From: an uncultured Planctomycetia bacterium
Lineage (GTDB): Bacteria > Omnitrophota > Gorgyraeia > 1-14-0-20-64-10
DNA length: 42,260 bases
Assembly: GCA_964372955.1 (NCBI GenBank)
Contig: CAYJTC010000002.1
Coordinates: 1 to 42,260 of the forward strand
Direction of reading: 5' to 3'
Below the pieces are notes generated by a model. That model was not told the origin of the DNA and made no database searches. It saw only the letters and a list, made by a program, of their open reading frames with translations. Every line of letters begins with the position of its first letter. The first letter of the stretch is position 1. Made by a program: the position numbers and the translations under genes. Below are positions 21,801-39,009 of the stretch, piece after piece.

Positions 21801-24800
21801 TCCAGCCCCGCGCGGGCCGGCTCGACGATGATTCTGGTCGGGGTGAATGTGGCTTTGACCCGACCACCGACATTGCCAGGCACACTCCCCGCGCCACCCA
21901 ACAAATCCCTCACCTTCCAGGGACGGTCGCGCACCTCCTCAGGGGAAACATACCAGGGCGAGGGGACACCCTGCGTAGTGACCTCAGCCCGCGGATTCCG
22001 TGCCGCGAATTCCAGGATCTTCTCGTAGACCTCTCCCTGCTCGCCCTCCGTCGTCTCCAACCCCGCCGCGGTCAACGGGAGGTCGGCTCCGGAGCTTGTC
22101 AGCGCCGCCGTCAGCTGAGAAACTCGCGTCTCGATAAATTGCGTTTTCGGCCCCAGGATCTCGACCACAAACTTGTTGCGAGCTGAGTCGTCCAGGAGCT
22201 CTTTCCCCTCTAGCCCCAGAGTGGCGACGACCTTCGCCACACGCTCATCGATTCTCGTCTTGATCAACTCCCTCGTCGCCCGGCTCTGATCCCGATAAGC
22301 GGCGAGGATCTCCGACACTCTTTTGCCTTCATGATTCTCAAAGAGGGTCTGCCGTTCGTGTTCCCATCGCCTGTTTTGGGCCGGGCCTTTCAGGAGGGCC
22401 TGAACCGATTCGGCGTTCAGGCTTCCGGCCTTTTCCAGACGGTCCAATTCCCGGAAAAGCCCCTGCGCGGAATACTGCCTGAGGAACTGCCGATAGGCCT
22501 CGATCCCTCTGATCCGGTTATCCTTGTGCAGGTAGTTGTTGCCCAGCCCCGTGACTCCCTGAGGGCTTGGCCTTTTACCGCCGTCCTTTTCTCCCATATA
22601 AAGGGTTCGTTCCGGATCCACGATATCTTCCAAGTGCGTAAGCGCCTCTTTGACATGGATCGCCGTTTCCGGAGCGTAAATCTCCCCCCGGTATGTGGAG
22701 CGCAACGATTTCTTTCTAGCCGACCATTTCCACTCGTTTCGCAGAAGCATATAGGGCAGATACGTCAGAACCCAACCGGGAGCCACCTCGTTGTAAAGCC
22801 TCTGCTTGGCGCCTAATTTGGTCATGCTGTCCGGATCCGGAACCCCCATGAGCATGAAGGGAAATGTGACCGTCTGCCCGCTGGAGACCAGGATTCCTGT
22901 CTGGAAGAGCGCGTGATCGGACCCGCTGAAATCCGCGGGGAGCTGGAAGACCACGCCGGATCCCCCAAACCCGCCTTTGGGAAGCTTCAGCTCCAGCTCC
23001 GCTCCCGACCCGTCATGATTCGCCGTGATGATCCCAGCCCCGACATTGAATCCGTAAGGAAGGTGGCCTCCCAACACCAGGGAGGTCTTGTGATGGCTGG
23101 TGACAAAATCTTCTCCCAGGTCACCCCCGAACTCCCCTTTCGCCACAAGGCCATCGGGCCCAAGATACATTCCGGTCACGTTGACTCCCTGTTCGGCCGT
23201 GGCGGCTTCGTCAAGGAACATCTGCGTCAACTGAGACGCAGTCGCCGCGTGAGCCTGGGGTTTCATGACCACAAAATTGAGCTGGGCGGCGTTATCAACC
23301 ACCACTTTCTGCTTGCGAACGTGCTGGCGGACGGCCTCTTCGCCGCCTTGGCGAAGCTGAGCCAGTTTGGCTCCAGTCAACTCGACCAGCAGCCGCGGCG
23401 TCTCTTGTTCACTCCTGGCCAAACGGAGCAGCTCTTCCATTTCCGCGGAGGTAAACCCTCCGATCAGCACTGCTTCCTTGACATGCTGGGCATGATCAAG
23501 GAAAGTGTTCTTGCCAACGTAAACGTTGATGACCTGCGAGGTGGTGTCGATGACGGACCCTTCCTCCACAATCCCCCATTTCGATCGGGCCAGCTTGACG
23601 TACTCGGCGTGCTCCGCCCGGTATTGATCCGCGAATCTCTTGTCGGTGAGGAGCCGGCTGGACAGGTGCAACGCTCCTTTCAGGATCAGCTCCGGATGAA
23701 CCGGCAGTTTCCGAACGCCGGCCTCATTTCGGATCTCATGATACTGGGAGAGCCCAAAAGTGGTCTCCGGGTCAGCGGCCATCCTAGCTTTCACCACGAT
23801 GTTATCGCCCTTCAGAACGTAGTTGGTGATCTCGGAAGAATCGATGGCCATGTTCTTTCCCAGACGCGAGTTGCGGATCTCGGAACTAAAGATCCCCCTG
23901 AGCTTCCGGGTGATCCCGTCGGGCAAGGTGATCTCTCTGGGCTCGATCCGCCCGATCTCAACCCGCTCGAAGAAGCGGTTCCCCAAGATCCGGGAAAGAA
24001 ACGCCTTCACCTGATCCGAGGACATGGCGGCGTCAATGAAAACGTCATCCCAGCTTCCGATTTTTCCGGAACTGTTCACGGCGAAATTTCCTTGTCTCTC
24101 CAGAAGAGCTTGTTCCTCTTCGCTGAGCCCTCTGAGCGACTCCGCCGCCTTCCACGCGCCGGCCTGATCAGGCGCCAGGTTGACAGCCCGCACCGACGCC
24201 AGGAACTCGGAGGTTTCCCGGTCTTGGCGAATGGCGGCGATCGGATCGAAGGCCTCCACCTCCTTCGCCCACGTCAAGAACTGCTCCTCCAGCCCGGCCT
24301 GGGAAGGCGGTGGGGACTGGACAGAGGTGGCGGGGGAAACAAAGAAGTAACTTGCGCTGGTGGTGGGTCTGTCTTCTTCCAGGCCGGCCAGGTTGGTGAC
24401 GATCTTGGTGACCCCCTGCTGCTGGTAGGTGAGCACCCGGATCAGCTGATCCGGGTCATGGGCGAAGCCGAAAACCATCGGCAGGTTGATGCGATAGATT
24501 TCCAGCGCTTCCTGCAACAGTTGGTAGACCTCTCCGATTCTCAATCTGGCCTCTTTGGGCGTCGCCTCGGGAGAGTATTTGGATTCCAACGCGCTAATGG
24601 CCCCCGTGATCTGCTGCTTCAAGATTCTGTCCTTTTCAGACAGGCCGTCATCATCCTTCTTGTTCAGAGCCGCGTAGGCGCGGATGATGACCACCTCGTC
24701 CAAAAACTGCGGGTCCTGTGGATCATCGAACTGTCCGAATACACCGCGGGTTCCTGCAGGGTCTTCCAGCTCTTTCCAGATCGCTCTGGCCACCTTGGCC

Positions 24801-27800
24801 GCCCACTCCGCCAGCGGCTGGAAACGTTTCTTGGCCAGGAAAGAGGTGAAACCATGGATGGCCGCGATGGCCTCGACCGGGTCCCCCGTTGGAAGCGCGA
24901 TCACGTGGTCGGGCACATCCCCGCCCATCTGGTACAAAGACTCCGCCTCTTTCTTCGAGATCAACACCATGACCGTGGTTTCCCAACGGGGAAACCGTTT
25001 CCTAAGCTCTTTGTAGAAGACCGCCCGATCCGGCCCTTCGGCCCCGGAATCGTAGACGACGACCAGCTCTCCTCTGCGCGCCCGCCGGACCTGGCCCATT
25101 TCCTGGCGGTCGACATCCCACGGTATCCCCGCCCTCTTCAACAGCTCCACCCGTCGGCCAACCAGCTGGTTCACCACCAGCCGGTTGAGCACCAGCAGCT
25201 CCAGAAGATCCCCGTTTGGAGTCGCGATCACTGCGTCCGAATGGGTCACCCCTATGGTCTTGTGCAATGTCAGCGGGATGTTCTCCAGGGACTGTTTTCG
25301 CCCGTGGCGAAACGCCTGGAAATGACCATCCGGAATCGAGAGGTCCTTGAGGTCCCCCTCAGTTCCGACATAGAGGAAGAACCCGGGTTCCCGGTCGGTC
25401 GGGAAGGGAGGGTTGACCGCCCGCGGAATCATCTCGGTGGTCCGTTTCTTCATGTCGGGATCGTAAGCGGCCTTTTCCGAGGGGCCCACATTGCCGTACC
25501 AGACCACCAGCTCGCCGCCGGGCTGCTGCGCCGCAAAACCGCCGTGCCCGAAGTTGCTGGGCTCCTCCGGATAGGAAACCATTCCCAGGTATTCCCGGAT
25601 CCACCGCGCAAAATCCCGGGCCAGCCATTCCCGCGCTCCATATCCTCCCGGCCATATATTGAATCCTTCCCATCCGCGGTCCTGACTGCGCTTCTCGGCG
25701 AACCCGGCAATCCGGTTGATCGCTTCTGAGTTGTATCCGGAATCGGAAGTTTCATCAATTGTTCTTTGAATTCCCGTGGATGCCGCCGCCTCCCGGGAGG
25801 TTTGCTCCTGCTTAATATGGGAACGGGCCTCCTCCTTCCATGTTTCTGTGAGATTGGTGCCTTCGTCGATGGAGCGGAGCGCCAGTTGAGCCACCAGCCG
25901 ATCCAAGGCGGAAAAGACAGCGAATCCCTGATCGTACGGCCTGCCCTGAAGCTCCAAGAGGTTGGAGAGTCTGGGCCGGATTTCCTGGACAAGCGGGGTG
26001 GTCTCTGAAGAATGAAGGCAGATCTGCTGATCCGGGGCGATATTCCATCGAGCGATCAGGTCGGCGGCCTTGCGCTGTTCCGTTTCATGGCCTTTGTCAT
26101 TGGGATCTCGCCCGTAAATCATCGCCTCGCCGGGACGGACGAAGACAACCAGGGTCCCCCGCGGAAGCGAGTATCGGCCGCCCCTCCTGGCCAACGCCTC
26201 CTCGTACGTCATCACTTCGATGGACGCTGGACAGAGGTGCTGATAGGAGTTCCTGACCAGCTGCATGGCGTACGTGTCCGTTCCGTTGCCCACCAAAAGG
26301 ATTTTCTGAATTGGTTCTCGAGTCAACCGGGCGTGATTCAGAGCGTCCGCAAAATGCCTGCGATTGGCGCGAACGGTCTCCGTCACCGTGGATGGATCCC
26401 ATAGTTCCTTTTGGCTCTGATACTGCTCGTTGGTCCTACCATTGCTCGCGGCAATGTCCCTCTCCAAGAATTCAGAAGAAGAGCGAAGCACGGTGGCCGT
26501 CACCCCCACCACCTCCGCGAACTTAAGACCCAGTTCGCTGACTGTCTTGCCCTTACCTCTTTCGATAAAGGTGACGTTCACGGGCCGGAAATCGACCCCA
26601 TAGCCGGCGTGGTGGGAGGTCCATGACCGCCTGGAGTTGTCCCTCCAGTAGCTTTCCACATCCGAGAATCTGTCCCTGTAACTCTTGAGTTTTGCTCCAC
26701 CCTTCTCCGAAACAGGTTTCTCCCAGGGCAGAACCTTTCCTTGGAAGGAACTGTCCAGGACAGCCGCCAGTGTCCCCGCTTGGAGACTGCCATCCTCCAT
26801 CCGGCTCCCATGGGCGCGGAGTTTTTCCAGTCGCTGGTGAGCCTCTAGATTAATCCTCGGCGCATCCAACGAGCTCTGCGCCGCGGCAAGAGCCTGCCGA
26901 CGCCATCGTTCAATCCCGAGAATTCGCAGCAGGAGGATGGCATGGTTGGCCGTCCCTGTGGCGGGAACGGAGCTCTCCGGAGTGGACCGGGTCCTCAAGG
27001 TGCCTCCGCTGACGCGCGCGAACCGATCCACAGCGCTCCCCGCCGTGTTGGTCACTCCGATCACTTTGGCTCCGCTGGGAAGGGCCGTCGCGATCAGATT
27101 GAGGGCAGAGCCAGTTTCTCCCGACTGCGAAACCACCAGAAGGATGGTCTTCTCCCCAAAGGTCAGGTTCGGAGTCAAGCGCAGTCTCAAGCTGTCCGAC
27201 TGGCGGATGGTGTCAAAAAGGGGCTCCTCAGCGTCAGCAATCTCCAAGATGAAGGTGGAGGTCCCGGATCCGGCACCCACGACCACGATCTGCGCCTCCG
27301 GGTCGCTCAGAAGCTTCAGCATTCCGGGGGTTAGACCGGTCCCGTCCTCCCCAACTTCCAAGTGCGGCTCCAGCAGATCATACTCGTCTCTCCGGACGTA
27401 CCGGTCAAAGGTCCTCAGGTAAGTGGCGTGCTGAACCAAAGTCTCCAGCTCGTAGGGGGAGAGCTTCCGGTAGGTCTCTTCCCCCTCCTTCAAAACCTCG
27501 ATCCAGGCGGCATCCAGCGTGCTTACCTCCTGAGCCAAGTTCACTGTTTCCGAACCGTTCTCCCAGGTCTTGTAGCGATTCACCTGGGTCCCATCCACCG
27601 TATAGATGGTCCAGGGCTCCACAAATTTCCCTTCCGCGGTTCCATAGACCACATTGATCCCTGGAAGAGACGTCGGATATCTTTCTTTGACCCTCCCCAT
27701 CTGAGGAGCCGCCCCGCGAAGCTCAGAAACAGCCACCACCCGGGCGATCTCACCCTGAGAATCCCGCTCCACCACGAGATTGACCTGAGTGGTCTGTGTC

Positions 27801-30274
27801 TGGGAATGGGCTCTGGCCACCACTCCGCCGTACGGGTCGTTGAGGCTAGAGACCTGGATCGTAATGTTTAAGCCTTTCCAGAAAACGTCTCGGAAATCCA
27901 GCGGAGACGCCTTGGAGAGGAATGCTCCGAAACCGGTCGGCTGAGGCTGTTTCGTCTCCGGATGAGGGTCGATGGGCTCTCCATTGTGGAGGTCAAAGGT
28001 CAGATACCCGTGCCACTTATTCTCTTCCGTTCCCCGCTGGTCGTAATAACTCGGATCCGAGATGGCCCTCTCAAGAACCTGCACAAACGCCTCGGAAACC
28101 ATCTCCTGGAACTTCTTGCCTCCCATCTGCTTCGAAGCCAGCAGCTCGTCTGCCGTGAAGAGAAACCCGTGCTTGGCTAGGAGCAACCGCATTTGTCTGA
28201 TTTCATTCCTATAATCGTAGATCTTTCGCTCTATTTTTGCTTTCTGATCAGCAGTAGCTTTTAAGAGGGCCTGCCTCAGGCTATGGACCCTCTCGTTGAC
28301 CTCCCCCAGCTGTTTCCCCAGCGCTTTGAAGACCTCCAGGACGTCGATTAAGCGGAACAGGCGCCGAAGCGCGACCTCCGACGGCTCTACGGAGAAATGG
28401 CCTCCATCGTTTTGGGTCAAAGACATCAGGACCAGAAGCATGAGAAGCACTTCCGAATCGGTGGTCCCCTGGATCTTCACCCCTTTGGAGTCCAAGTAGG
28501 CCCGCACCCAGTCATAAGTCTCCCAATCCCCGTTGTGCGAAAGGCTGAAGACCCCGTTCTCCCACCCTTCCTCCAAGAGCTGATCGATCTGACGGCCATC
28601 GTCTATCCCCAGCAAAGAAGCCAAGACGGGCAGAATATCCTCCAGATCGACTTCCCAATGATGGGCGTTGGCCAGCTGGAATCCGCCTTTTGTCGCGAAA
28701 CGGGTGTGAAAATAGACGCCGCGCGCGGAAATGCGGGCCAACGGGTGGTCCCGCCGTCCTTTTTGGGTCGTGACGATCCAGTCGGAACTGACGGGGGATT
28801 CCTGCTTCGCTTCAGCCTGCAGCTCTCCTCGCCCAATGGCTTGAAAGAAGCCGGAAACCACATCCTTCACCCGGCTGGCGTCCTCTCTTTTCATTCCCTG
28901 CTGATTCGCGGTGACTCCTCCGACGACCCGGGAAACAGCGAAGAAGCGGATCGACTTTAAATGGCCCTCTGGGCTCTCCACCAGCTTAACCCGTTTGGCG
29001 CGGGCCCATCGCCGCAGCTCCAGAGTTACCGAGAGGGGTAGGATTTCCCTAACCAGATCGGCCAGCGGCATCTCATACTTGATCAGAAGGGCCGCGGCGT
29101 CGAAACCGCGGGGCTCCAGCAGCTCAATGGCCCGGTAAGCGGCCTCATAAGGCGAAGAGTCCGGCCGGATCCCGAAAAAGGCTCCTTTCTCGAGCTCCGA
29201 AGACGCCAACGAAGAAGGCACGCTCACCACGCCGCAGCAGCCGATCACGCCAGCCAGATGGGATGCGGAGAGAACCCGGACCCCTCTGGGAAGAGCCCCA
29301 TCCGTCCGAACTCCCACCAGCCCCCGCCCTCCGATCCACCGGCTCATGAACTCCCTGCGGGAAACGGTGACCTCGGCGGTCCCGAGGACCCCCTCTTCTC
29401 CAAAGGCCGGCTCCGTAAAGGTGACCGCTTCCGGCGTTGCCTCTTTAACGACAACAAAATGACTCTCATCCAAGTGGGCGATGAAATGTCCGGCCTGTGT
29501 CAGAGATCCTAAATCCTCTTCTCTGGCAGCCACCCCTTCCCAGCGAATCCGGGAGCCTGCCGACGCTCCTTTTTGGACCGTTTCCAGACGAGTCTGAATG
29601 TCCAAAAGAGAATCCGCCAGCATCCGATGAGTCATTCCACCATGCTGACGCTCCACGTAAGAGAATCCTCCCGTGCGGACCAGCTGATGCAGGATGAGAA
29701 TCGCCGTCTGCCGCTCCCGGCTGTTGAATTCATCGCTTTGCTCCTCTTCCGGGCGCCGGAATTGGGGATCCGAAGTCAGATTGGCGATCGCATCCGCACC
29801 GCAGGTGACGCAAGCCACGGGAGATGCCCCGATGACTGCTTCTAGCTGCGCTTCAACTTCCTGTTTGGAAGGGAGCCGCCGGGCCAACTCTTTGGAGCGG
29901 TCCTTAAGGAATTTCATTCCCGCAAGAACCTGATCCTGGAGATTCGCCTGCCGTTCAGGCAGTGAGGCCAGGAACTGATCCAACTCTCCCAGGAGCGTCC
30001 GATCCTGAGCAGTGAGGGTCCGATTGGAAATGTCCTTTTTCCGTTTCGGCTCCACCAGAACGGAGGTGTGGCCAATAATCGCAGCAACCGGAGTCGTCGC
30101 GCCGCCGCCCAGCTGTTCCTCCAGGCCGGCTTGGGACTTGCCCTCGATGCCGGGCCGCAGGGTCCTTCGACCCAGCTCAGGACTGGCTCCGGCGGGAAAA
30201 GCTTGTGACAAGGTAAGGGAAAGGATGAGTAAATACGCGAAGAACCGCCGAAACAGAAAACCCTTCGTCGTCAT
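18812..30274 (-). CDS. Giant multidomain protein A (3820 aa): signal peptide, C39-like Cys peptidase, GlmS-like Ntn amidotransferase with SIS modules, GlmU-C-like beta-helix, transaldolase-like barrel, shared C-terminal domain
   Basis: Uninterrupted 11,463-nt ORF. ATG 30274 with GAGAGGGGA 7 nt upstream.
- aa 1-30: signal peptide (MTTKGFLFRRFFAYLLILSLTLSQAFPAGA|S).
- aa ~150-345: papain/C39-like peptidase (PVACVTCGADAIANL; AGHFIAHLDESHFVVVKE).
- aa 347-~620: class-II amidotransferase as in GlmS (CGVVS, AYRAIELLEPRGFDAAAL, YFHTRFATKGGFQLANAHH, SLSHNGDWETY, GTTDSEVLL).
- aa ~995-1125: SIS (IVVVGAGSGTS, LLVVSQSGETGSAL, VIGVTNTAGSAV).
- aa ~1320-1470: SIS-like (ILLVGNGTDTYA).
- aa ~2240-2450: hexapeptide beta-helix (VGKNTF LDHAQH VKEAVL IGGFTS; GAGIITANHDGSGAELELKLPKGGFGGSGVVFQLP, compare the GlmU NYDG region).
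- aa ~3020-3290: transaldolase/FSA-like (VMLNPTL, GQVSFQVNSRLS, VFKVDGT, FTNITGQGS, ITQMAGRV).
- aa 3642-3820: C-terminal domain. Confidence 0.93.
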   Translation of the reverse strand: MTTKGFLFRRFFAYLLILSLTLSQAFPAGASPELGRRTLRPGIEGKSQAGLEEQLGGGATTPVAAIIGHTSVLVEPKRKKDISNRTLTAQDRTLLGELDQFLASLPERQANLQDQVLAGMKFLKDRSKELARRLPSKQEVEAQLEAVIGASPVACVTCGADAIANLTSDPQFRRPEEEQSDEFNSRERQTAILILHQLVRTGGFSYVERQHGGMTHRMLADSLLDIQTRLETVQKGASAGSRIRWEGVAAREEDLGSLTQAGHFIAHLDESHFVVVKEATPEAVTFTEPAFGEEGVLGTAEVTVSRREFMSRWIGGRGLVGVRTDGALPRGVRVLSASHLAGVIGCCGVVSVPSSLASSELEKGAFFGIRPDSSPYEAAYRAIELLEPRGFDAAALLIKYEMPLADLVREILPLSVTLELRRWARAKRVKLVESPEGHLKSIRFFAVSRVVGGVTANQQGMKREDASRVKDVVSGFFQAIGRGELQAEAKQESPVSSDWIVTTQKGRRDHPLARISARGVYFHTRFATKGGFQLANAHHWEVDLEDILPVLASLLGIDDGRQIDQLLEEGWENGVFSLSHNGDWETYDWVRAYLDSKGVKIQGTTDSEVLLMLLVLMSLTQNDGGHFSVEPSEVALRRLFRLIDVLEVFKALGKQLGEVNERVHSLRQALLKATADQKAKIERKIYDYRNEIRQMRLLLAKHGFLFTADELLASKQMGGKKFQEMVSEAFVQVLERAISDPSYYDQRGTEENKWHGYLTFDLHNGEPIDPHPETKQPQPTGFGAFLSKASPLDFRDVFWKGLNITIQVSSLNDPYGGVVARAHSQTQTTQVNLVVERDSQGEIARVVAVSELRGAAPQMGRVKERYPTSLPGINVVYGTAEGKFVEPWTIYTVDGTQVNRYKTWENGSETVNLAQEVSTLDAAWIEVLKEGEETYRKLSPYELETLVQHATYLRTFDRYVRRDEYDLLEPHLEVGEDGTGLTPGMLKLLSDPEAQIVVVGAGSGTSTFILEIADAEEPLFDTIRQSDSLRLRLTPNLTFGEKTILLVVSQSGETGSALNLIATALPSGAKVIGVTNTAGSAVDRFARVSGGTLRTRSTPESSVPATGTANHAILLLRILGIERWRRQALAAAQSSLDAPRINLEAHQRLEKLRAHGSRMEDGSLQAGTLAAVLDSSFQGKVLPWEKPVSEKGGAKLKSYRDRFSDVESYWRDNSRRSWTSHHAGYGVDFRPVNVTFIERGKGKTVSELGLKFAEVVGVTATVLRSSSEFLERDIAASNGRTNEQYQSQKELWDPSTVTETVRANRRHFADALNHARLTREPIQKILLVGNGTDTYAMQLVRNSYQHLCPASIEVMTYEEALARRGGRYSLPRGTLVVFVRPGEAMIYGRDPNDKGHETEQRKAADLIARWNIAPDQQICLHSSETTPLVQEIRPRLSNLLELQGRPYDQGFAVFSALDRLVAQLALRSIDEGTNLTETWKEEARSHIKQEQTSREAAASTGIQRTIDETSDSGYNSEAINRIAGFAEKRSQDRGWEGFNIWPGGYGAREWLARDFARWIREYLGMVSYPEEPSNFGHGGFAAQQPGGELVVWYGNVGPSEKAAYDPDMKKRTTEMIPRAVNPPFPTDREPGFFLYVGTEGDLKDLSIPDGHFQAFRHGRKQSLENIPLTLHKTIGVTHSDAVIATPNGDLLELLVLNRLVVNQLVGRRVELLKRAGIPWDVDRQEMGQVRRARRGELVVVYDSGAEGPDRAVFYKELRKRFPRWETTVMVLISKKEAESLYQMGGDVPDHVIALPTGDPVEAIAAIHGFTSFLAKKRFQPLAEWAAKVARAIWKELEDPAGTRGVFGQFDDPQDPQFLDEVVIIRAYAALNKKDDDGLSEKDRILKQQITGAISALESKYSPEATPKEARLRIGEVYQLLQEALEIYRINLPMVFGFAHDPDQLIRVLTYQQQGVTKIVTNLAGLEEDRPTTSASYFFVSPATSVQSPPPSQAGLEEQFLTWAKEVEAFDPIAAIRQDRETSEFLASVRAVNLAPDQAGAWKAAESLRGLSEEEQALLERQGNFAVNSSGKIGSWDDVFIDAAMSSDQVKAFLSRILGNRFFERVEIGRIEPREITLPDGITRKLRGIFSSEIRNSRLGKNMAIDSSEITNYVLKGDNIVVKARMAADPETTFGLSQYHEIRNEAGVRKLPVHPELILKGALHLSSRLLTDKRFADQYRAEHAEYVKLARSKWGIVEEGSVIDTTSQVINVYVGKNTFLDHAQHVKEAVLIGGFTSAEMEELLRLARSEQETPRLLVELTGAKLAQLRQGGEEAVRQHVRKQKVVVDNAAQLNFVVMKPQAHAATASQLTQMFLDEAATAEQGVNVTGMYLGPDGLVAKGEFGGDLGEDFVTSHHKTSLVLGGHLPYGFNVGAGIITANHDGSGAELELKLPKGGFGGSGVVFQLPADFSGSDHALFQTGILVSSGQTVTFPFMLMGVPDPDSMTKLGAKQRLYNEVAPGWVLTYLPYMLLRNEWKWSARKKSLRSTYRGEIYAPETAIHVKEALTHLEDIVDPERTLYMGEKDGGKRPSPQGVTGLGNNYLHKDNRIRGIEAYRQFLRQYSAQGLFRELDRLEKAGSLNAESVQALLKGPAQNRRWEHERQTLFENHEGKRVSEILAAYRDQSRATRELIKTRIDERVAKVVATLGLEGKELLDDSARNKFVVEILGPKTQFIETRVSQLTAALTSSGADLPLTAAGLETTEGEQGEVYEKILEFAARNPRAEVTTQGVPSPWYVSPEEVRDRPWKVRDLLGGAGSVPGNVGGRVKATFTPTRIIVEPARAGLEEIGQAETEEQVRGRILQQAKDWDRAEFGAQKLSFFTHPQNSRERNRFIRESLEKEFGQLGEAEKRSALRFLADATFLMASEGIQERTLRNKELFGADVLTPEVIQAEVQEWHALLNRLEALAKPLAQQVLADWRQDLLQIQLANVEKDFDAKTNKGQSFLAYWAEKAPTGSLSEFVTYFNEKIQKARLRRTVRLTGQVLGNDYGAGIDMLTDYYTFVMLNPTLSRRNVRERRSLQLKVKEAVFNFVRSNPGYDPKQRKWALLREATMVAGEPARRALLPIFIHEKGMRGQVSFQVNSRLSKRHEVVADIFLLGDRFAAETQAMMKELGVTEIFPKQQLDAFLENPLGNGYSKVHPVFKVDGTLAGVYGRVLEAWNEALTQAGDDLDQVDPTQINTESIIEDVHTQGLFTNITGQGSVAGAVAGFMAQVTANMKARTQKIPIHAAYITQMAGRVEAALRWVAIDRVRRALQAREDQDPKAAELLAKLEKEIKEGALKNPDSNGLMDNLVLREAAAYVSFRLSSDKAVRRAGAAIIQQTERILNALRTRLASNGVTPEETGQLLASTRLTVPDDTMSHFFQTSGRNIRIGFFPIAARGVEEGDQPDVPNGVTQTQFDAHIQAIEKNPAVLDGVFQEVEPELIQELIDSSIGDEFRRFYEVNDGEKELLTRLGIYQSEWSGQGWKLSELRQTAFARHTETGDWGMEIKDDDEAWLDRVKQQFMGDTNLWGRELEVLARLIEVDARQDAKSAAKALFAPLFEGENNPDQALETAVDNYLTNKPSPVIKKSVADLTLEPEFLPFKQNFDQARQAAAAGLEERTEGAAPTAVPPVRTLGTTPLVTATTVLNPVTRTIGVSRTSGIPLVRVPSAVDAHKGLILAHEALAFLEMVPSIEPVDGQQVPIVAIVENGDHLRKVKARAEQLGLQITLIDASVSYGGNVMLAARETKKRLSAEGFSYQLALFLSDLMEVVKFLGVPIPESFIQAAEGVLKEQVSQYL
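30197..30260. repeat. Direct repeat copy 1 (the 5' coding end of giant ORF-A)
   Basis: AAAAGCTTGTGACAAGGTAAGGGAAAGGATGAGTAAATACGCGAAGAACCGCCGAAACAGAAAA aligns with 30689..30751 at roughly 85 percent identity by eye. Confidence 0.85.
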
Positions 30275-31098: not shown

Positions 31099-32847
31099 TT
31101 AATCCTCAGCCGCCTCCGCGACCGAGACCGGACGAAACTCCGTGCTGGGAGATTCCGCAGTGACGCGAGAGGTTGCCTCCGGAACGGCCGGGATCCCCAG
31201 CTTGCGGCGGTACGGCTCGGACATCGGCACGTAGGTCTCTTTGAGCACCCGGTGGTACTTCTCGGTGTCGGCGGCGGTCACCTTGCCCACCTTGGGAGCC
31301 ACCACCGCGTAGGACACCTTGCGCTCCTTGAAGAGCCGCTCGAAGGCCGGCGTGTGGAACCCGCCGGCGATCAGGACTGCGTAGGGGACCTTGAATTCCT
31401 GAATCTGCTTGAGGGCGTTGTCCACCATCGCGATGTCCCGCTCTCTGGCTACCTCGTAGAAGCTGGACATCGCCGGCATCGCGGCGTTCAAGGGGCCGGG
31501 TCTTAAGGCAAAAGTAAGCGCTGGATTCTGCTTGGCTCCCAAACCCTGCAGGGAGTCGGCCCAACGGTCCGGTTTGAACTCCTTTTTGTGGGTGCTGTAG
31601 TAGTTGTAGCTCTCCGGGGTGAGCTTCAGCTCCAGCAGGTCTCCCAAGACCCCGATGTCCTTGGCCAGCAGGGCCAGCGTTTTCTGATCCGTGTTCTTGA
31701 AGGTGCTGGCCTTGAGGCGCTCGCTCAAATTCTCCACCTCCGTGAAGAGGGAGGCGTGGTCGATCCCCTCAAACAGGTCCAGGTACTCCATGTACCGGGT
31801 CAGAGAGGGATATTCGGCCGCCTGCTCCGGCCGGACGTACGACTTCAGGTGCCCGTAGAAGGTGGCCGGCGTCACCAGCCCCTGTTTGAGCTCCAGGCTC
31901 TGCTTCAACAGCTTGTCCATTTCCGGCTTAGGCAAGTTCTTGGTGAGGGCCTCCAGGAACTGGGTCCGCTCGGTCTCCACCGTCTTGAAGTTGAGCTCCC
32001 CCTCCAGCCGGCTGGCGTTCAAAAACTTCAGCAGGTTCGGGTATTCGGAATCCTGGACCGAGACTTTCTGTTTCTTGGCTTCTTCCGCGAGAGCCTGGTA
32101 ATGCTTGGCCAGCGGGATGCGCCCGGCCTGCACCTCCAGCTCCCGCAGCTCCAGGGTCTTGACCGGCTCCGGGTAGAGCCGTTCCTTCAGGGAAGCCGCC
32201 GCATCCTGGAACCCTTTCATGGCGGAGAGCGCCTCCGGCTGAACCTTCTCCACGTTGAAGAAGGATTCCATGTTCTGGTCGTACAGCTCCGGCTTCTCGA
32301 TTCCATAGACGGTGAAGGGATAGTCGGTGGTCAGGTCCAGGTAATTTTCCCCGGAGATCTTTCCGCTTTTCAGGAAATCCTCGGCCACCTGCCGGCGCTT
32401 TTCCAGCGGGGCGTAGGACCTCATGTAGGAAAGGGAGTCGTTGCGGGATCCCCCCTCGACTAAGACCAAAGACAGGTCATGGGCCTGGATGAGGTGCTCC
32501 AGGATGCCGGCCAGGTTCTTCTGGGCCTCGTAGTTGGCGTGGGCATCCTGGATGTGGACGACGATCGGCTCCCGGGCCGAATAGGTTTCCTTGAGAGAGC
32601 CGTGCTGGACCGGGATGCGCAGGTTCTGCAGGGTCAGCGGGGATTTTTCAATGGGGGCTTTGGGACCGGACTGGGCGGAAAGGGGGGGGGCTTTCGTCGG
32701 ATCCTCAACCTTGCCGTGCTGCTCCCAGAAGGTCTTCTTCTTGGGAGCCGCCGCCTCCTCCTGGGCAAAAAGGGAAAGAGGATTCGCGCCGCCAACGCAC
32801 AGCCACAAAGCGGCTAAAAGGGTTAGAAGACGTCCACCAATTCTCAT
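31099..32847 (-). CDS. Secreted 582-aa protein of unknown function
   Basis: Clear signal peptide (MRIGGRLLTLLAALWLCVGGANPLSLFA|QEE). Conserved-looking blocks VVHIQDAHANYEAQKNLAGILEHLIQAHDLSLVLVEGG and YAVLIAGGFHTPAFERLFKERKVSYAVVAPKV. I cannot place it in a family. Confidence 0.8.
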   Translation of the reverse strand: MRIGGRLLTLLAALWLCVGGANPLSLFAQEEAAAPKKKTFWEQHGKVEDPTKAPPLSAQSGPKAPIEKSPLTLQNLRIPVQHGSLKETYSAREPIVVHIQDAHANYEAQKNLAGILEHLIQAHDLSLVLVEGGSRNDSLSYMRSYAPLEKRRQVAEDFLKSGKISGENYLDLTTDYPFTVYGIEKPELYDQNMESFFNVEKVQPEALSAMKGFQDAAASLKERLYPEPVKTLELRELEVQAGRIPLAKHYQALAEEAKKQKVSVQDSEYPNLLKFLNASRLEGELNFKTVETERTQFLEALTKNLPKPEMDKLLKQSLELKQGLVTPATFYGHLKSYVRPEQAAEYPSLTRYMEYLDLFEGIDHASLFTEVENLSERLKASTFKNTDQKTLALLAKDIGVLGDLLELKLTPESYNYYSTHKKEFKPDRWADSLQGLGAKQNPALTFALRPGPLNAAMPAMSSFYEVARERDIAMVDNALKQIQEFKVPYAVLIAGGFHTPAFERLFKERKVSYAVVAPKVGKVTAADTEKYHRVLKETYVPMSEPYRRKLGIPAVPEATSRVTAESPSTEFRPVSVAEAAED

Positions 32848-32909: not shown

Positions 32910-35330
32910 CTAACGATTAACGTTACCACTAACCAGCCGGGACGGGTCCACCTTCGAACCCCCCTTCCCCAGCCAGACCTCGACGGCGTGGACCTTGCCG
33001 TCCCGGTGAGGCCGGATCACCGGGGAGTCCACCTGCCGGCCGTCCACGGTGACCCTCTGTACCCCGTGGGTGGCCCCTTGAGGGTTATGGATCGTGATCT
33101 CGTAGGTGGAGCCCCGGAAGTTCCTGCGGATAAAGGCCTTCTTCCAGTGCTTCGGGAAGCACGGATCGATCCTTAAGCCCTCGAAATCCCGGCGGGCCCC
33201 CAGGATCCACTCCGTGGCCGCCACGAACATCCAGGGGGTGGTGCCGGTGTTCCAGGTAAATGCCCCTTCCCCGAACCGGTCGGAGGAGCCGGGCCCAATC
33301 ACGTACTCGGCCCAGACGTACGGTTCCACCTTGTACCGGTCATGGTCCTGTTTGGCCCGGGCCATCGGCATCAGCTTGGAGAAGGTGGCGAAGGCCTCCT
33401 GCGCTCGCTTCAAGGTGCAGTCGGCCACCACCTTGAAGGCGCAGGCGTGCGAGAAGATAGAGGCGTTCTCCTTGGTGCCGGGGCAGAAAGCGGTAACCCG
33501 CCCGATGCCCGGATTGAAATGGGTGTAGCTGGGCAGGAATAGGGCCGGCCCGTAGGGGGTGTCCAGGTACCGGTCGATCTTTTCCAGGATGCTGGGGAGC
33601 CGCTCCGGCGGCACAACCCCGCTTAAAATCGCCCAGGTCTGGGAATTCAGCGGCACCTTCCCTTCCTTGTTCTCCTGAGAACCGATCTTGTACCCCTCGT
33701 CGTTGAAGGCGGCCAGGTACCAATTGCCGTCCCAGCCCTGCTCATTCACCGCCCGGGTCATCTCCTCGGCCATGGAGCGCATCTCCTCGGCCGTTTTTGG
33801 ATCCCCCAGGAATTCGGCCAGCTCCTCCACCTGGCGGCAGGCCCGCACGAAGGCCATCCCCAACCAGATGCTCTCTCCCTTGCCCTTCACTCCGACATGG
33901 TCGTAGGCGTCGTTCCAGTCGGCATGCCCGATCAACGGCAGGCCGTGCTGGCCCCGGGCGCTGTGCAGATACCGGACCGCCCTCAGGACATGCTCGTAGA
34001 CGGAGGCCGCGGTGCCGTCGTGGAAGGGGATCTCTTTCTTCAAGAATTCGGTGTCGCCGGTTTCCTTGACGTAGGAGATGACACTGTAGGGCAGCCACAC
34101 ACAGACGTCCGCCTTCTTGATCACCCCCTGGACTCCCTGGTTCTCCCAGGTCCCCTCCACCTCGGAGAATCCGGAGACGGCGTGCCCGTTCTTGTACTGA
34201 TAGAAGAGAAGCCGCTCCAGCTTGGCCCGGGCGGTGGCGATGTCCACGCTCAGGAGCCCTTCGACATCCTGGGCGGTGTCCCGATAACCCTGGCCCCCTT
34301 CGGCCCCGTGATAATGAGAAGTGCCCCGCCAATGGGTGATGGCGAACAGCTGATACTTGCCCCACAGGTTGGTCATCCGGTCGAAGTTCGGGTCCGGCGT
34401 CTGGACCCAGACTTTCTCTTCCAGGGCCTTCTGCCAATGGTCCCGCACCGCCTCCAGCTCCCGCTTGGCTCCTTCAACCGACCGGAACCGCTTCACCAGG
34501 GTCGGGACCTCCTCCCGTTTGTCGGTGATCCCGGAGACCACCACGAATTCGGCCGTTTGGCCCGGCTTCAGGGTGAATGTCCCCTGCAGAGCCCCCACCA
34601 TGTCCTCCCCGCGGCTGGCATGGTTGCCCAGTTTTTTGGCCTTCAGCCCCTCCGGGTCCGCCAGCTCCCCGTAAGGGCCGATGAAGCTCTCCCGCCGGGT
34701 TTCGAAGCTTTCAACCGGAAAGCTGGCGGCCAGGAACCCGTAGCCGGGTTTGTGCCAGGACTTGAACGGATGCTTCCAGGCGACGACCGCTTTGAGCTCT
34801 TTGTCGAAGATCGCCTCGTTGTACAGGCACAGGATGTTCCGGTAATGGGTCTCCAGCGCCACGTCCCCGCAGACGAGCTCCACGAACGGGATCGCCTGGA
34901 TCGTCCGGCGCTTGCGGCCGGTGTTCTTCAGGGAAACCAGCCACAGCTCCACCGGTCCCTCCCGGGCCACGAAATAAGTGATCGATCCCTGGATCCCGTT
35001 GCGGGTGGCCTTCAGCGTGGTGTATCCCAGCCCGTGGCGGCATTCCCATTCCTGGAGTTTTTCCCGCTTGGGCTGCCAGTTGAGGGTCCAGACATCGCCC
35101 TTCGCCGTATCCTTCAGGAACAGGTACCGGCCGGGGCGGTCGGAGCTTAGGTGGTCGTACCGGTGGAGCCGGTAATATTTCGGGTCCCGGTAGTAGGAGA
35201 ATCCGGCTCCAGTCTGGGAGAGAAGGCAATGATAGACGTCGTTGAACAGGTAGTTAAACCAGGGCCGCGGGGTGTCGGGCCGGGTGATGATGAATTCGCC
35301 TCCGTCAGAACTAAAATGACCGTACTGCAT
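32910..35330 (-). CDS. GH94 glycoside phosphorylase (cellobiose / chitobiose phosphorylase family)
   Basis: Chosen start is ATG 35330 (MQYGHFSSDGGEFIITRPDTPRPWFNYLFND), a typical GH94 N-terminus. The 42-codon upstream extension in the track is R/G/P-rich. Catalytic-region motif LPLIGHADWNDAYD. About 806 aa, as in characterised members. Confidence 0.9.
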   Translation of the reverse strand: MQYGHFSSDGGEFIITRPDTPRPWFNYLFNDVYHCLLSQTGAGFSYYRDPKYYRLHRYDHLSSDRPGRYLFLKDTAKGDVWTLNWQPKREKLQEWECRHGLGYTTLKATRNGIQGSITYFVAREGPVELWLVSLKNTGRKRRTIQAIPFVELVCGDVALETHYRNILCLYNEAIFDKELKAVVAWKHPFKSWHKPGYGFLAASFPVESFETRRESFIGPYGELADPEGLKAKKLGNHASRGEDMVGALQGTFTLKPGQTAEFVVVSGITDKREEVPTLVKRFRSVEGAKRELEAVRDHWQKALEEKVWVQTPDPNFDRMTNLWGKYQLFAITHWRGTSHYHGAEGGQGYRDTAQDVEGLLSVDIATARAKLERLLFYQYKNGHAVSGFSEVEGTWENQGVQGVIKKADVCVWLPYSVISYVKETGDTEFLKKEIPFHDGTAASVYEHVLRAVRYLHSARGQHGLPLIGHADWNDAYDHVGVKGKGESIWLGMAFVRACRQVEELAEFLGDPKTAEEMRSMAEEMTRAVNEQGWDGNWYLAAFNDEGYKIGSQENKEGKVPLNSQTWAILSGVVPPERLPSILEKIDRYLDTPYGPALFLPSYTHFNPGIGRVTAFCPGTKENASIFSHACAFKVVADCTLKRAQEAFATFSKLMPMARAKQDHDRYKVEPYVWAEYVIGPGSSDRFGEGAFTWNTGTTPWMFVAATEWILGARRDFEGLRIDPCFPKHWKKAFIRRNFRGSTYEITIHNPQGATHGVQRVTVDGRQVDSPVIRPHRDGKVHAVEVWLGKGGSKVDPSRLVSGNVNR

Positions 35331-35338
35331 AAAATTTA

Positions 35339-36547
35339 TTAAACGGCGGCGAAGACGTCGCGGATGACCAGGGAAGCGGCCCCCAGGGCGACACAGTCCT
35401 CGCCCAGCCGGGCCGGGACGATCTTGACCGCGCTGGCCATTTCCTCGAAGGCGCACATCCGAACCCTCTTCTTGATCGACTCGATCAAGGCCGGGCCGGC
35501 CGCTTCGATGCCCCCGCCGATCACCACCGCGCCGGGGTTGAGCAGGTTGATCAGGAAGGCGATCCGGACCCCAAGCCGCTCGCCGGCCTTCTGGACCACT
35601 TCGGCGGCCAGCTTGTCTCCTTGCTTGAGCGCCTCGAAGACGGTCTCCAGCGTAACCTGGTCCAGTTTTCCCTTGACCAGTTCTGAAATTTTTGAAACAG
35701 CCCCCTTCTTGACCGCCTCGCGGGCATCATCCGGAATGCCCAAGTGGGCCGCCCAGGGCTTGAGGGCCGCGATGTTGCCGATCCAAAGGTCCGAGTCTTC
35801 CGCCACGTGGTTGCGGATCGAAACCTCGCCGGCGGTTCCGCTGTGGCCGTGGTAGATTTCCCCGTTGATGATCATGCCGCAGCCCACCCCGGAATACATG
35901 AACAGCATGATGTCCACATCGGTGCCGGCCCCCAGGGACCATTCCCCGTAGGCGGCGGTGGTCACATCGTGCTCCAGCTTGACCGGCATCTTGAACTGCT
36001 CCTGAAGCAGGGTGGTGACCGGAACGTAGATGGAGGCCACCCCTTCCGTGCAGCGGACCGTCCCCACCTCCCGGTCGATCACGCCGGAGGCCCCAATATG
36101 GATCCCCCGGATTTTCTTGGATTCCAGCCCTGAGGCCTTGATCACCTGCTCCACCTGCTCGGTGAGCACCTTGACCACGTTGTCGGCGGTGTCTCGCGGA
36201 CGGTCCGCCTTGGCCCGGCCAATCACGGTGCCTTCCAGGTCGGTTAAGACCGCGGTGATGTAAAAAATCCCCAGGTCGATCCCCACCACGTAGGCGGCCT
36301 TGGGATTTAAGACCACGATCGTCGGGCGCCGCCCGCCGGAGGAGATATCCAGCCCCTTCTCGATGACGATCCCTTGCTCGATGAAGTTGTTGACGTAATT
36401 GGAAACGGTGACGATGTTGAGCTTAGTGAGTTTGGAGACGTCGGTGCGGGAGATCGGGCCGTAACGCTTGATCGCTTCCAGGATGGAGACGTTCTTGCGT
36501 TCCCGATCGGTTAGGGAATACTCTTCGACTTCTGTTCCTCTGATCAC
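35339..36547 (-). CDS. ROK-family transcriptional regulator (NagC/Mlc/XylR-like), apparently lacking the Zn motif
   Basis: GTG 36547 with TAAGGGGG upstream. wHTH ILEAIKRYGPISRTDVSKLTKLNIVTVSNYVNNFIEQGIV. ASKHA fold (YVVGIDLGIFYITAVLTDLEG, GVGCGMIINGEIYHGHSGTAGEV). No Cys residues follow AGEV where ROK proteins normally carry CxCGxxGC. Confidence 0.88.
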   Translation of the reverse strand: MIRGTEVEEYSLTDRERKNVSILEAIKRYGPISRTDVSKLTKLNIVTVSNYVNNFIEQGIVIEKGLDISSGGRRPTIVVLNPKAAYVVGIDLGIFYITAVLTDLEGTVIGRAKADRPRDTADNVVKVLTEQVEQVIKASGLESKKIRGIHIGASGVIDREVGTVRCTEGVASIYVPVTTLLQEQFKMPVKLEHDVTTAAYGEWSLGAGTDVDIMLFMYSGVGCGMIINGEIYHGHSGTAGEVSIRNHVAEDSDLWIGNIAALKPWAAHLGIPDDAREAVKKGAVSKISELVKGKLDQVTLETVFEALKQGDKLAAEVVQKAGERLGVRIAFLINLLNPGAVVIGGGIEAAGPALIESIKKRVRMCAFEEMASAVKIVPARLGEDCVALGAASLVIRDVFAAV

Positions 36548-38947: not shown

Positions 38948-39009
38948 CAAAAGGGGTCAGGCACTTTTTGACAGCCTCTAACCGGGTTGTCATAAAGTGC
39001 CTGACCCCT
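38948..39009. repeat. REP-like hairpin, GGGGTCAG family
   Basis: AGGGGTCAGGCACTTT (38952..38967) pairs with AAAGTGCCTGACCCCT (38994..39009). The right arm encodes the last residues (GSGTL*) of the upstream gene. The first 25 nt are identical to 5659..5683. Confidence 0.85.

Follow-up and report, generated by a model that had tools for sequence, protein, structure and literature searches.

Probable activation by cleavage of a GlmS-like enzyme with an internal nucleophile

The locus raises the question of how a glutamine amidotransferase could work when its nucleophilic cysteine lies inside a giant protein. Ntn amidotransferase chemistry dictates that this cysteine must be exposed (PMC9140057), and because that chemistry is established, we infer that the 346 residues upstream of Cys347 in ORF-A must be removed, with cleavage predicted at the Cys346-Cys347 bond. 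ORF-A is encoded in the analyzed window (42,260 nt from an uncultured Planctomycetia bacterium) and is arranged as a signal-like peptide, an AGLEE motif, a C39-like domain, a leader-like linker and a GlmS-like module (aa 347-1961; Table 1). An identical protein is on record (P0001, from an NCBI contig). The positions given in a preliminary description of this DNA were correct: ACVTCGADA carries Cys155 and Cys158 at 29798..29812, while Cys346 and Cys347 are the codons TGC TGC at 29239..29234. Read from the sequence, aa 1-30 appear to comprise a basic n-region, a hydrophobic stretch (FFAYLLILSLTL) and an AGA/S site; the relatives have a common signal region (..FTQ..PAWA/LRP).

Table 1. Features of ORF-A in the window; the codon of residue n begins at 30274-3(n-1).
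Feature	Position	Strand	Basis or remarks
ORF-A, 3820-aa giant protein	18812..30274	(-)	holds all parts below
Sec-type signal-peptide-like N-terminus, aa 1-30	30185..30274	(-)	sequence reading
First AGLEE motif, aa 49-53	30116..30130	(-)	
Divergent C39/papain-like cysteine peptidase domain, aa 132-334	29273..29881	(-)	Pfam, PDB profile matches, Foldseek
CVTCG (Cys155-x-x-Cys158-Gly); Cys158 is the candidate nucleophile	29798..29812	(-)	conservation
His272, candidate catalytic histidine, in SHFVVV	29459..29461	(-)	conservation and PCAT1 alignment
Glu288, candidate third triad residue, His+16	29411..29413	(-)	spacing as in LahT
Double-glycine-leader-like motif LSASHLAGVIGC, aa 335-346 (-12 to -1)	29237..29272	(-)	family pattern
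Cys347, Ntn nucleophile of GlmS-like glutaminase	29234..29236	(-)	invariant; pairs with GlmS Cys after Met1
Expanded class-II (Ntn) glutaminase domain, aa 347-921	27512..29236	(-)	LEPRGFD, HTRFATKGG, NAHH, SHNGD, TTDSEV
GlmS-like isomerase part (SIS domains, SQSGET, FGHGG)	24392..27511	(-)	hhalign, Pfam SIS

Profile-profile comparison bore out the proposed equivalence of Cys347 to the GlmS nucleophile, pairing CGVVS with CGIVG and LEPRGFD with LEYRGYD. Against 35 canonical GlmS sequences, hhalign aligned a core block with 98% probability, and a collinear N-terminal block paired Cys347 with the nucleophilic cysteine. The equivalents of the other GlmS residues are conserved (ORF-A/GlmS: Arg389/Arg26, Arg525/Arg73, Thr528/Thr76, Asn581/Asn98, Gly582/Gly99 and Asp606/Asp123). 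Across 13 relatives with 21-39% identity, R389, G390, D392, H523, R525, T528, N536-H538, N581, G582, D583, D606 and E608 are invariant or nearly so, and Cys347 is invariant among 13-18 distant relatives. The predicted fold agreed: the best PDB matches of the AF2 model (pLDDT 77.7) are the E. coli GlmS glutaminase domain (1xff; Foldseek target TM-score 0.65-0.69) and human GFAT1. The isomerase part aligns with the GlmS isomerase domain (hhalign probabilities 99.6% and 95.7%), Pfam detects SIS within it, and its closing VTKIVTN, which we read as the counterpart of the GlmS C-terminal tail, is immediately followed by the second AGLEE. The module as a whole lies far under the NCBIfam and Pfam cutoffs and has several insertions of at least ~100 residues.

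A divergent C39-like peptidase domain precedes the amidotransferase

The domain upstream of Cys347 was said to be C39-like, and we found a weak but specific likeness in both sequence and predicted fold. ORF-A scores just under the Pfam Peptidase_C39 cutoff (E=2.9e-4; 21.1 bits compared to 22), while 7 of 18 relatives match the family (best E=8e-6). Searching the PDB with a profile of the domain gave the C39 domains of PCAT1 and ComA as top matches. Foldseek, run with the domain model (pLDDT 82), returned the LahT150 chains of 6mpz as the sole confident matches, with target TM-scores of just 0.43-0.57.

Candidates for all three catalytic residues are present. Cys158, the second cysteine of the CxxC, is near-invariant in the family and sits in a loop modeled with pLDDT <50; Cys155 occurs in most relatives. 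The segment proposed to bear the histidine, GHFIAHLDESHFVVV, was correctly located and contains His263, His267 and His272, but the family-invariant residue is His272 (18/18 sequences) rather than either of the other two, and it pairs with the PCAT1 catalytic histidine in the profile alignment. Glu288 is spaced from His272 as Asp117 is from His101 in LahT, and in relatives its position is mostly Asp, with Gln or Ser in a few. A conserved Pro occupies the place of the proposed oxyanion Gln (Cys-6 in ComA/LahT-type domains).

The junction resembles a double-glycine leader

According to the preliminary description, the peptidase domain ends exactly at the cysteine. The adjacency held, but the folded core stops near aa 320-334, and aa 335-346 are a leader-like linker outside the peptidase fold. 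In the model, aa 341-346 form a low-confidence stretch between both domains and are probably flexible.

We found that the 12 residues preceding Cys347 reproduce the motif of the double-glycine leaders that C39 proteases cut. The family pattern is L-S/T-D-x-E-L-A-x-V/I-x-G-C/S/A/G, with L/V at -12, S/T at -11, E/D at -8, L/M at -7, V/I at -4 (17/18 junctions) and G at -2 (16/18). Residue 346 (-1) varies between C, S, A and G, while Cys347 does not vary. We scored the junctions with the literature-defined motif (L-12, E/D-8, L-7, V/I-4, G-2 and a small residue at -1; PMC6363468). At least five of the six positions are matched at 14/18 junctions; taken over every position in these proteins, the rate is 0.14%. 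The full motif is present at 6/18 junctions and just once outside them in 55,168 residues, although the 18 sequences are homologous and such counts overstate independence. The four upstream positions, which had no part in locating the junctions, give the same picture when scored alone (at least 3/4 at 15/18 junctions, compared to a 3.0% background). ORF-A itself deviates in having His at -8, rather than Glu or Asp, and Cys at -1; the last residue of characterized leaders is Gly, Ala or Ser (PMC6363468). The peptidase-junction arrangement goes beyond chance, given the single junction in each relative described below, the invariance of Cys347 next to a variable position 346, and the profile-profile match to GlmS.

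Some 25 giant proteins share this architecture; those that are named belong to genomes of uncultured Planctomycetia, Auribacterota and UBP3, and no description of it was found in the searchable literature. An exhaustive search found exactly one peptidase-Cys junction in each of 17 complete relatives (P0002-P0019 minus the fragment P0014). The same junction pattern occurs at five of the six related genomic loci; L006, the remaining one, carries a variant (LSDEEMLQIECA followed by CG). The adjacency persists whichever of the two glutaminase subtypes is present, and also where relatives carry extra fusions at the N-terminus.

What could expose Cys347

The preliminary description had left open whether the Ntn domain or the adjacent peptidase does the cutting. 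The adjacent peptidase is favored by the double-glycine-leader pattern, which is conserved from -12 to -1. Alternatively, the glutaminase itself could remove everything upstream of Cys347, and the C39-like domain would then have some other function, such as cutting at different sites, binding substrate as a C39-like domain, or acting as a prodomain or inhibitor. The short propeptides of this enzyme class are said to come off autocatalytically (PMC9140057), which would make a separate protease dispensable. Moreover, all Ntn catalytic residues are intact, and the upstream domain resembles C39 peptidases only weakly and lacks the oxyanion Gln. We nevertheless consider self-removal unlikely. It leaves unexplained both the leader pattern (-12, -8, -7, -4, -2 and -1) in relatives of 24-37% identity and the Cys/His-bearing C39-like domain that is always immediately upstream. 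The B. subtilis PurF propeptide has ~11 residues; known propeptides are short, and their final residue is Glu rather than a small residue preceded by Gly.

It is also conceivable that the bond is never cut, and that the module is a pseudo-enzyme or a user of free ammonia with its N-terminal domain still attached. Its extreme divergence from GlmS, far below the cutoffs and with large insertions, would fit this reading, and an export signal fits poorly with an enzyme needing cytoplasmic substrates. However, the residues needed for glutamine hydrolysis are invariant or nearly so over a deep divergence, which argues for selection on glutaminase chemistry and its requirement for a free Cys1 amino group; we regard an uncut protein as quite improbable. 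Equally doubtful is that the C39-like domain is a general polyprotein protease for the AGLEE linkers, with its adjacency to Cys347 incidental. Eleven AG-L-E-E/T motifs are confined to ORF-A and ORF-B, none of that form occurring in other reading frames, and at least two border modules (one directly after VTKIVTN, one ahead of the C-terminal domain). Yet the leader pattern is missing from all 49 G[LM]EE sites, both when the cut is placed after the Gly and when it is placed ahead of it, and their upstream scores reach at most 3/4, the same as background. In addition, GLEE motifs are lacking in a clade that retains both peptidase and junction. P0007, P0012 and P0015 retain both and have no GLEE; loci L004 and L006 also have none, and L003 and L005 have one each. 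The suggested polyprotein maturation is thus supported for the Cys347 junction and not for the AGLEE linkers, which lack the C39 recognition pattern.

Comparison with known systems

The C39 domains of PCAT/AMS exporters (ComA, PCAT1 and LahT150), ABC transporters of bacteriocins and quorum peptides, are the best sequence and fold matches of the ORF-A domain. Both are papain-like, with the Cys in a C-G motif, the His on a strand reading HFVV and an acidic residue at His+16, and they share the substrate motif (hydrophobic -12, -7 and -4; Glu -8; Gly -2; small -1). Unlike those exporters, the ORF-A domain has no ABC transporter fusion, sits behind a Sec-type signal-peptide-like N-terminus, has Pro for the proposed oxyanion Gln and a CxxC at its active site, and separates Cys from His by 114 residues, compared to 74 in LahT. 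Protease and leader-like motif belong to a single chain, in which the motif follows the protease on its C-terminal side; the -1 residue is usually Cys; and the cargo is a ~1600-aa enzyme rather than a peptide.

In class-II (Ntn) amidotransferases with propeptides (MEROPS C44; B. subtilis PurF, glutamate synthase), as proposed for ORF-A, the cysteine is exposed by proteolysis and is not translated as residue 1. Those propeptides range from a few residues to a few tens and are said to cleave themselves off, whereas the ORF-A "propeptide" has 346 and brings along both a candidate protease and a recognition motif for it. In canonical GlmS, loss of the initiator Met is enough to expose Cys1. GlmS/GFAT, glutamine--fructose-6-phosphate aminotransferase, and ORF-A share the order of glutaminase, SIS domains and C-terminal tail motif, with conserved catalytic motifs, but the ORF-A module is larger (~1615 aa with large insertions, compared to ~608 aa), is embedded in a 3820-aa protein and scores far below equivalog cutoffs.

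Several viral papain-like leader proteases cut at their own C-terminus (potyvirus HC-Pro at Gly/Gly, aphthovirus Lpro and arterivirus nsp1). By analogy, ORF-A may follow the same logic, in which the papain-like protease leads a polyprotein and releases what comes after it by cutting at its own C-terminal boundary. In ORF-A, a bacterial protein, the cut would serve to unmask an Ntn nucleophile. A search of a viral structure library gave nothing specific, and no sequence or fold relationship to viral leader proteases was found.

A proposed self-contained activation module

The GlmS-like enzyme must probably be freed by the neighboring protease before it can work. In the mechanism that we propose, a divergent C39-type peptidase (candidates Cys158, His272 and Glu288) comes after the Sec-type signal-like N-terminus and the first AGLEE, and its C-terminal extension would imitate the final 12 residues of a double-glycine leader. 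This tail would be bound as C39 domains bind leaders, with the hydrophobic residues at -12, -7 and -4 in a groove and Gly(-2) and the small -1 residue occupying the active site, and the scissile bond would be cut either in cis or between two precursor molecules. Computation shows which domains are present, that their catalytic residues and the leader-like motif are conserved, and that the two domains are strictly adjacent; from this we infer cleavage, the C39-like domain as its agent, and catalytic activity of the GlmS-like module. We lean towards the view that these parts form a self-contained activation module, in which the peptidase cuts its own leader-like tail to expose Cys347. The free alpha-amino group on Cys347 would then allow glutamine hydrolysis and supply ammonia to the attached GlmS-like sugar isomerase.

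A predicted C39-like peptidase domain directly before the GlmS-like module

Profile comparison and modelling indicate that the domain upstream of the Cys346-Cys347 bond (the junction) in ORF-A is probably a divergent C39/papain-like peptidase with predicted activity. The preliminary description had placed the two junction codons, which read TGC TGC, exactly, and had read a papain/C39-like layout from a Cys in ACVTCGADA (Cys155, Cys158) and a His in GHFIAHLDESHFVVV (aa 262-276). Cys158-Gly159 is near-invariant in an alignment of 18 relatives, in agreement with the first assignment. The second segment does contain a His that is invariant in the same alignment, His272, but its His263 and His267 are not conserved and were rejected as the catalytic residue. 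In the comparison of the family profile with the PDB, His272 matches the catalytic His region of PCAT1, the SHFVVV strand coincides with the catalytic His strand, and the acid 16 residues further on falls on the catalytic Asp. This residue is Glu288 in ORF-A, Asp in most relatives, Gln in P0003 and P0004 and Ser in P0019; the His-to-Asp spacing of LahT is also 16 (PMC6363468). The Gln proposed as the oxyanion residue, about six residues before the Cys, is absent from the 18-sequence alignment, where a conserved Pro (Pro152 in ORF-A) takes its place; the oxyanion role of that Gln has itself been questioned (PMC6363468).

Scores against peptidase family C39, which belongs to MEROPS clan CA, are borderline. 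Pfam Peptidase_C39 matches the whole of ORF-A with 15.9 bits (aa 247-313, E=0.012), and the domain alone reaches 21.1 bits against the PF03412 gathering threshold of 22. The C39 profile match anticipated in the preliminary description is found in 7 of the 18 members (best E=8e-6) and falls just short in ORF-A itself. In the PDB, the domain profile matches the C39 domains of PCAT1 and ComA best (E=0.08-0.7). The only confident Foldseek matches of the domain model (aa 132-354, pLDDT 82.2) are three chains of 6mpz, the double-glycine protease LahT150 in complex with a leader peptide. Their probability is 1.0, with E=4.5e-3 and a target TM-score of 0.43, and 6mpz is again the second-domain match of a larger model spanning aa 125-921 (target TM-score 0.57). 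A helix follows Cys158 in the model, with pLDDT below 50. Against clean C39 membership stand the borderline scores, this poorly modelled Cys158 loop, the Pro in place of Gln and the non-acidic third triad position of some relatives. A further point against it is the lack of an ABC transporter: Pfam and NCBIfam scans of ORF-A detected neither a transmembrane nor an ATPase domain of this kind.

Unlike characterised C39 domains, the ORF-A family carries a CxxC at the nucleophile. A structural metal site formed by the CxxC and the His is a less likely explanation, as P0012, P0019 and L005 lack the first Cys yet retain the second Cys and the His.

A double-glycine-leader-like motif at the junction

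Substrates of C39 peptidases end in Gly-Gly, Gly-Ala or Gly-Ser and follow the consensus Leu(-12)-x3-Glu(-8)-Leu(-7) (PMC6363468). Across the junction, ORF-A reads VRVLSASHLAGVIGC-CGVVSVPS, and by its sequence the linker aa 335-346 (positions -12 to -1) is a double-glycine leader motif, located in cis to the C39-like domain and conserved in the family. Examples of family junctions are LSDSELAGVVGC|CG and LSDADLAKVQGS|CG, compared to LSASHLAGVIGC|CG in ORF-A.

Residue preferences at 18 family junctions, numbered back from the predicted scissile bond
Position	Residues	Junctions
-12	L/V	14/18
-11	S/T	10/18
-10	D	7/18
-8	E/D	12/18
-7	L/M/I	14/18
-4	V/I	17/18
-2	G	16/18
-1	C	12/18
-1	S, A, G	2/18 each

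We scored all positions with a six-position motif taken from the literature consensus (PMC6363468). At least five of the six motif positions are matched at 14 of the 18 junctions, compared to 0.14% of all positions in the same proteins, and the full motif is found at 6 of 18 junctions and only once elsewhere in 55,168 residues. The four upstream positions alone, which had no part in locating the junctions, give at least three matches in 15 of 18 cases against a background of 3.0%. The 18 junction sequences are related and these trials are not independent, although identity in this region is as low as 10-37%. The model of aa 125-921 has a short helix at aa 337-341, followed by a low-confidence stretch (aa 341-346) between the domains.

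The downstream module and its nucleophile

By sequence comparison the downstream module is GlmS-like without being a canonical GlmS ortholog. Among 13 aligned sequences, which are 21-39% identical to ORF-A, the invariant or nearly invariant positions are Cys347; Arg389, Gly390 and Asp392 (RGFD); His523, Arg525, Thr528, Lys529 and Gly530 (HTRFATKGG); Asn536, Ala537 and His538; Asn581, Gly582 and Asp583; and Asp606 and Glu608. GlmS residues Arg26, Arg73, Thr76, Asn98, Gly99 and Asp123 align with Arg389, Arg525, Thr528, Asn581, Gly582 and Asp606 of ORF-A, respectively.

A profile-profile comparison of the family with 35 canonical GlmS sequences yielded three collinear blocks: a core block (HTRW / HNG / TDSE) at 98% probability, an N-terminal block (32% alone) and a weak third block in the second half of the glutaminase domain. 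The N-terminal block pairs LEPRGFD with LEYRGYD and Cys347 with the Cys after Met1 of GlmS, bearing out the earlier pairing of CGVVS with the GlmS N-terminus. The AlphaFold2 model of aa 125-921 (mean pLDDT 77.7, pTM 0.70) also agrees: its top Foldseek matches are 1xff, the glutaminase domain of E. coli GlmS, with a target TM-score of 0.65-0.69, then full-length GlmS (3ooj) and human GFAT1, which points to an Ntn alpha-beta-beta-alpha fold. The isomerase region is related to the GlmS isomerase domain (hhalign probabilities of 99.6% and 95.7%) and contains SQSGET and FGHGG, and in a PDB sequence search both the HNG/TDSE block and, collinear with it, the SIS block matched human GFAT1. Single-sequence Pfam and NCBIfam matches are weak (GATase_6, aa 574-614; SIS, aa 1038-1114), and the equivalog level is not reached, with 45.5 bits against a cutoff of 418 for TIGR01135 and 51.9 against 381 for PRK00331.

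Position 346 is C, S, A or G across the relatives, while position 347 is always Cys; Cys347, and not Cys346, is consequently the nucleophile, and Cys346 was rejected for this role. As translated, the chain has its nucleophile at residue 347. A start inside the gene with subsequent Met removal cannot expose it, because codon 346 is TGC in ORF-A and no relative has a start codon there.

The module's last residues, VTKIVTN, lie outside the aligned blocks that could be read; from the sequence we equate them with the C-terminal tail of GlmS, NLAKSVTVE, which the family form LAKVVTN resembles. A cut at the second AGLEE motif of ORF-A would leave a near-native GlmS C-terminus; several relatives have no GLEE at this module end.

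Conservation of the front end in a rare family

When 1.84 billion representative proteins were searched exhaustively by HMMER with aa 100-1299, the matches were P0001, the ORF-A protein itself from an NCBI contig, and only about 19 relatives; below these come ordinary GlmS proteins, which match at the SIS block. The family is very rare, with about 19 clusters among these representatives, and the ten that were looked up are all singletons. Only the exhaustive search was productive: a word-indexed protein search returned no relatives with aa 1-1100 or with the peptidase alignment, and an exact look-up of ORF-A and its GH94 neighbour on contigs gave no match. A scan of species-representative genomes added members in two uncultured Planctomycetia MAGs, a Candidatus Auribacterota MAG, a UBP3 MAG and unclassified bacteria.

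Seventeen relatives are complete across the junction region, nearly all of them giant (1400-4900 aa), and P0014 and P0020 are fragments. Every junction-complete relative has the peptidase-like domain followed by exactly one junction of the form G/V-[C/S/A/G]-C-G/A-[V/I/L], with a slight variant in the related locus L006 (...LSDEEMLQIECA|CG). In P0007, P0012, P0015 and loci L003-L006 the N-terminus is extended by long additional regions, and here too the peptidase-like domain lies directly before the junction.

A second glutaminase subtype (P0013, P0016, P0017, P0018 and the more distant P0019) starts with CGINATFAH and has very large insertions; its isomerase region includes NLAKSVTVS, close to the GlmS C-terminal tail. 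As this subtype follows the same peptidase and leader-like junction, the activation module would predate the split of the enzyme subtypes.

A proposed mechanism for exposing the nucleophile

Class-II amidotransferases are Ntn enzymes whose nucleophile must be the free N-terminal residue (PMC9140057). In ORF-A 346 residues precede the nucleophile, and among them is a candidate protease of the very family that recognises the motif lying before the scissile bond. Domain identity and motif conservation are computed results, and what goes beyond them is inferred: in the reading with the best support, the C39-like domain probably cuts the Cys346-Cys347 bond, in cis or between precursor molecules, and the cut would then activate the GlmS-like module.

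The few residues that normally stand before an Ntn nucleophile are described as being removed by autocatalysis (PMC9140057), and the Ntn domain of ORF-A could likewise cleave itself, leaving the C39-like domain with another task. We consider this rather unlikely. It is improbable that no cleavage takes place and that the module is a pseudo-enzyme or ammonia-dependent. The peptidase's real targets could instead be the AGLEE linkers, an account that could coexist with cleavage at the junction and to which we give little credence: the leader pattern is found at 0 of 49 G[LM]EE sites, for which reason AGLEE was rejected as a C39-type cleavage site, and a clade without GLEE motifs keeps both the peptidase and the junction.

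AGLEE motifs, ORF-B and the gene neighbourhood

Eleven AG-L-E-E/T sites occur over ORF-A (aa 49, 1963, 1993, 2737 as AGLET, 2822 and 3637) and ORF-B (aa 61, 354, 654, 1542 and 2651), all on the minus strand, and the form appears in no other frame of the window. At least some sites lie at module borders. In the relatives the common form is [A/S/T/G]-G-[L/M]-E-E; Gln is enriched at -2, and the residues upstream show no hydrophobic periodicity. The motif could be cleaved by another protease, or it could act in docking or in sorting.

ORF-B has Pfam matches to MobA-like NTP transferase, CofD/YvcK-like, ROK kinase and PGM/PMM domains I-III, and ORF-A also has an LbH/DUF4954 module, probably a left-handed beta-helix. 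Together, the modules of both ORFs, all highly divergent, resemble a whole UDP-GlcNAc (UDP-N-acetylglucosamine) pathway, with counterparts of GlmS, GlmM, the GlmU halves, GlmR/YvcK and a NagK-like enzyme. ORF-A and ORF-B end in domains that resemble each other weakly (pairwise E=2e-4) and have no Pfam match; the relatives likewise end in a small domain after a final GLEE. N-termini of relatives read ..FTQ..PAWA|LRP. A Sec signal ahead of enzymes with cytoplasmic substrates (glutamine and fructose-6-P, and probably nucleotides for other modules) poses a topological puzzle.

Coordinates of features in and around ORF-A and ORF-B (forward-strand numbering)
Feature	Coordinates	Strand	Remarks
ORF-A, 3820 aa	30274..18812	-
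Sec-type signal-peptide-like N-terminus of ORF-A	30185..30274	-
First AGLEE of ORF-A	30116..30130	-
CxxC segment with candidate nucleophile Cys158	29798..29812	-	Cys158 is the second Cys of CxxC; family consensus C-P-x-C-G-A
Cys346 and Cys347	29239..29234	-	TGC TGC
GlmS-like module end VTKIVTN, aa 1955-1961	24392..24412	-	family LAKVVTN; second AGLEE directly after
C-terminal domain of ORF-A	18815..19351	-	about 140-180 aa; AGLEE before, ..YL at end
ORF-B, 2793 aa	10403..18784	-	starts 27 nt after ORF-A stop; signal-peptide-like N-terminus
C-terminal domain of ORF-B	10406..10816	-	about 140-180 aa; AGLEE before, ..YL at end
582-aa protein with signal peptide	31099..32847	-	gene just upstream of ORF-A; no Pfam match
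GH94 phosphorylase, cellobiose/chitobiose type	32910..35456	-
ROK-family regulator with HTH domain	35339..36547	-
Solute-binding protein / ABC permease fusion	38990..41269	-
938-aa open frame antisense inside ORF-A	22913..25729	+	probably a by-product of high G+C and opposite-strand coding; no sign of a gene

With the N-terminal part of P0007, the 582-aa protein encoded next to ORF-A shares 31% identity over 495 aa (E=2e-77), and similar N-terminal regions occur in P0012 and P0015. This fusion of its counterpart in P0007 suggests a functional link to the giant protein. The GH94 phosphorylase, ROK regulator and ABC fusion form a sugar-uptake context that may or may not relate to the giant ORFs.

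Discussion

The C39 peptidase, the double-glycine leader and the Ntn amidotransferase propeptide are of known kinds; the arrangement itself is not. Compared to known C39 systems, a single chain carries both protease and leader here, a 1600-aa enzyme is the cargo, and the cut would serve to unmask an Ntn nucleophile. Full-text literature searches yielded no description of the architecture and nothing relevant on AGLEE, on C39 combined with an amidotransferase or on giant polyproteins of Planctomycetota. The nearest working analogy known to us is the viral papain-like leader protease, which cuts its own C-terminal boundary; no homology to such proteases was detected when the peptidase model was compared with a viral structure library.

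To our knowledge, C39 double-glycine proteases have so far been peptide-export accessories. If the proposed cleavage takes place, ORF-A would be the first case in which such a protease carries its own recognition motif in cis, and its Ntn amidotransferase would be the first whose nucleophile is exposed by neither Met removal nor self-cleavage but by a neighbouring protease dedicated to the task. The activation module is compact, with about 220 residues and a 12-residue tag, and since the downstream protein would keep no residue of the recognition motif, it might serve as a traceless self-cleaving tag that exposes any N-terminal residue. It would also offer a concrete way into the question of whether giant multi-enzyme ORFs are processed as polyproteins. 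More tentatively, and with some doubt on our part, the C39 domain and its cis leader may act as a bacterial 'leader protease', a one-shot switch that exposes the Ntn nucleophile of the downstream GlmS-like enzyme as the first step in the maturation of Sec-targeted giant polyproteins (ORF-A and ORF-B). Were this so, metabolic enzymes in uncultured Planctomycetia, Auribacterota and UBP3 would undergo a virus-style polyprotein maturation.
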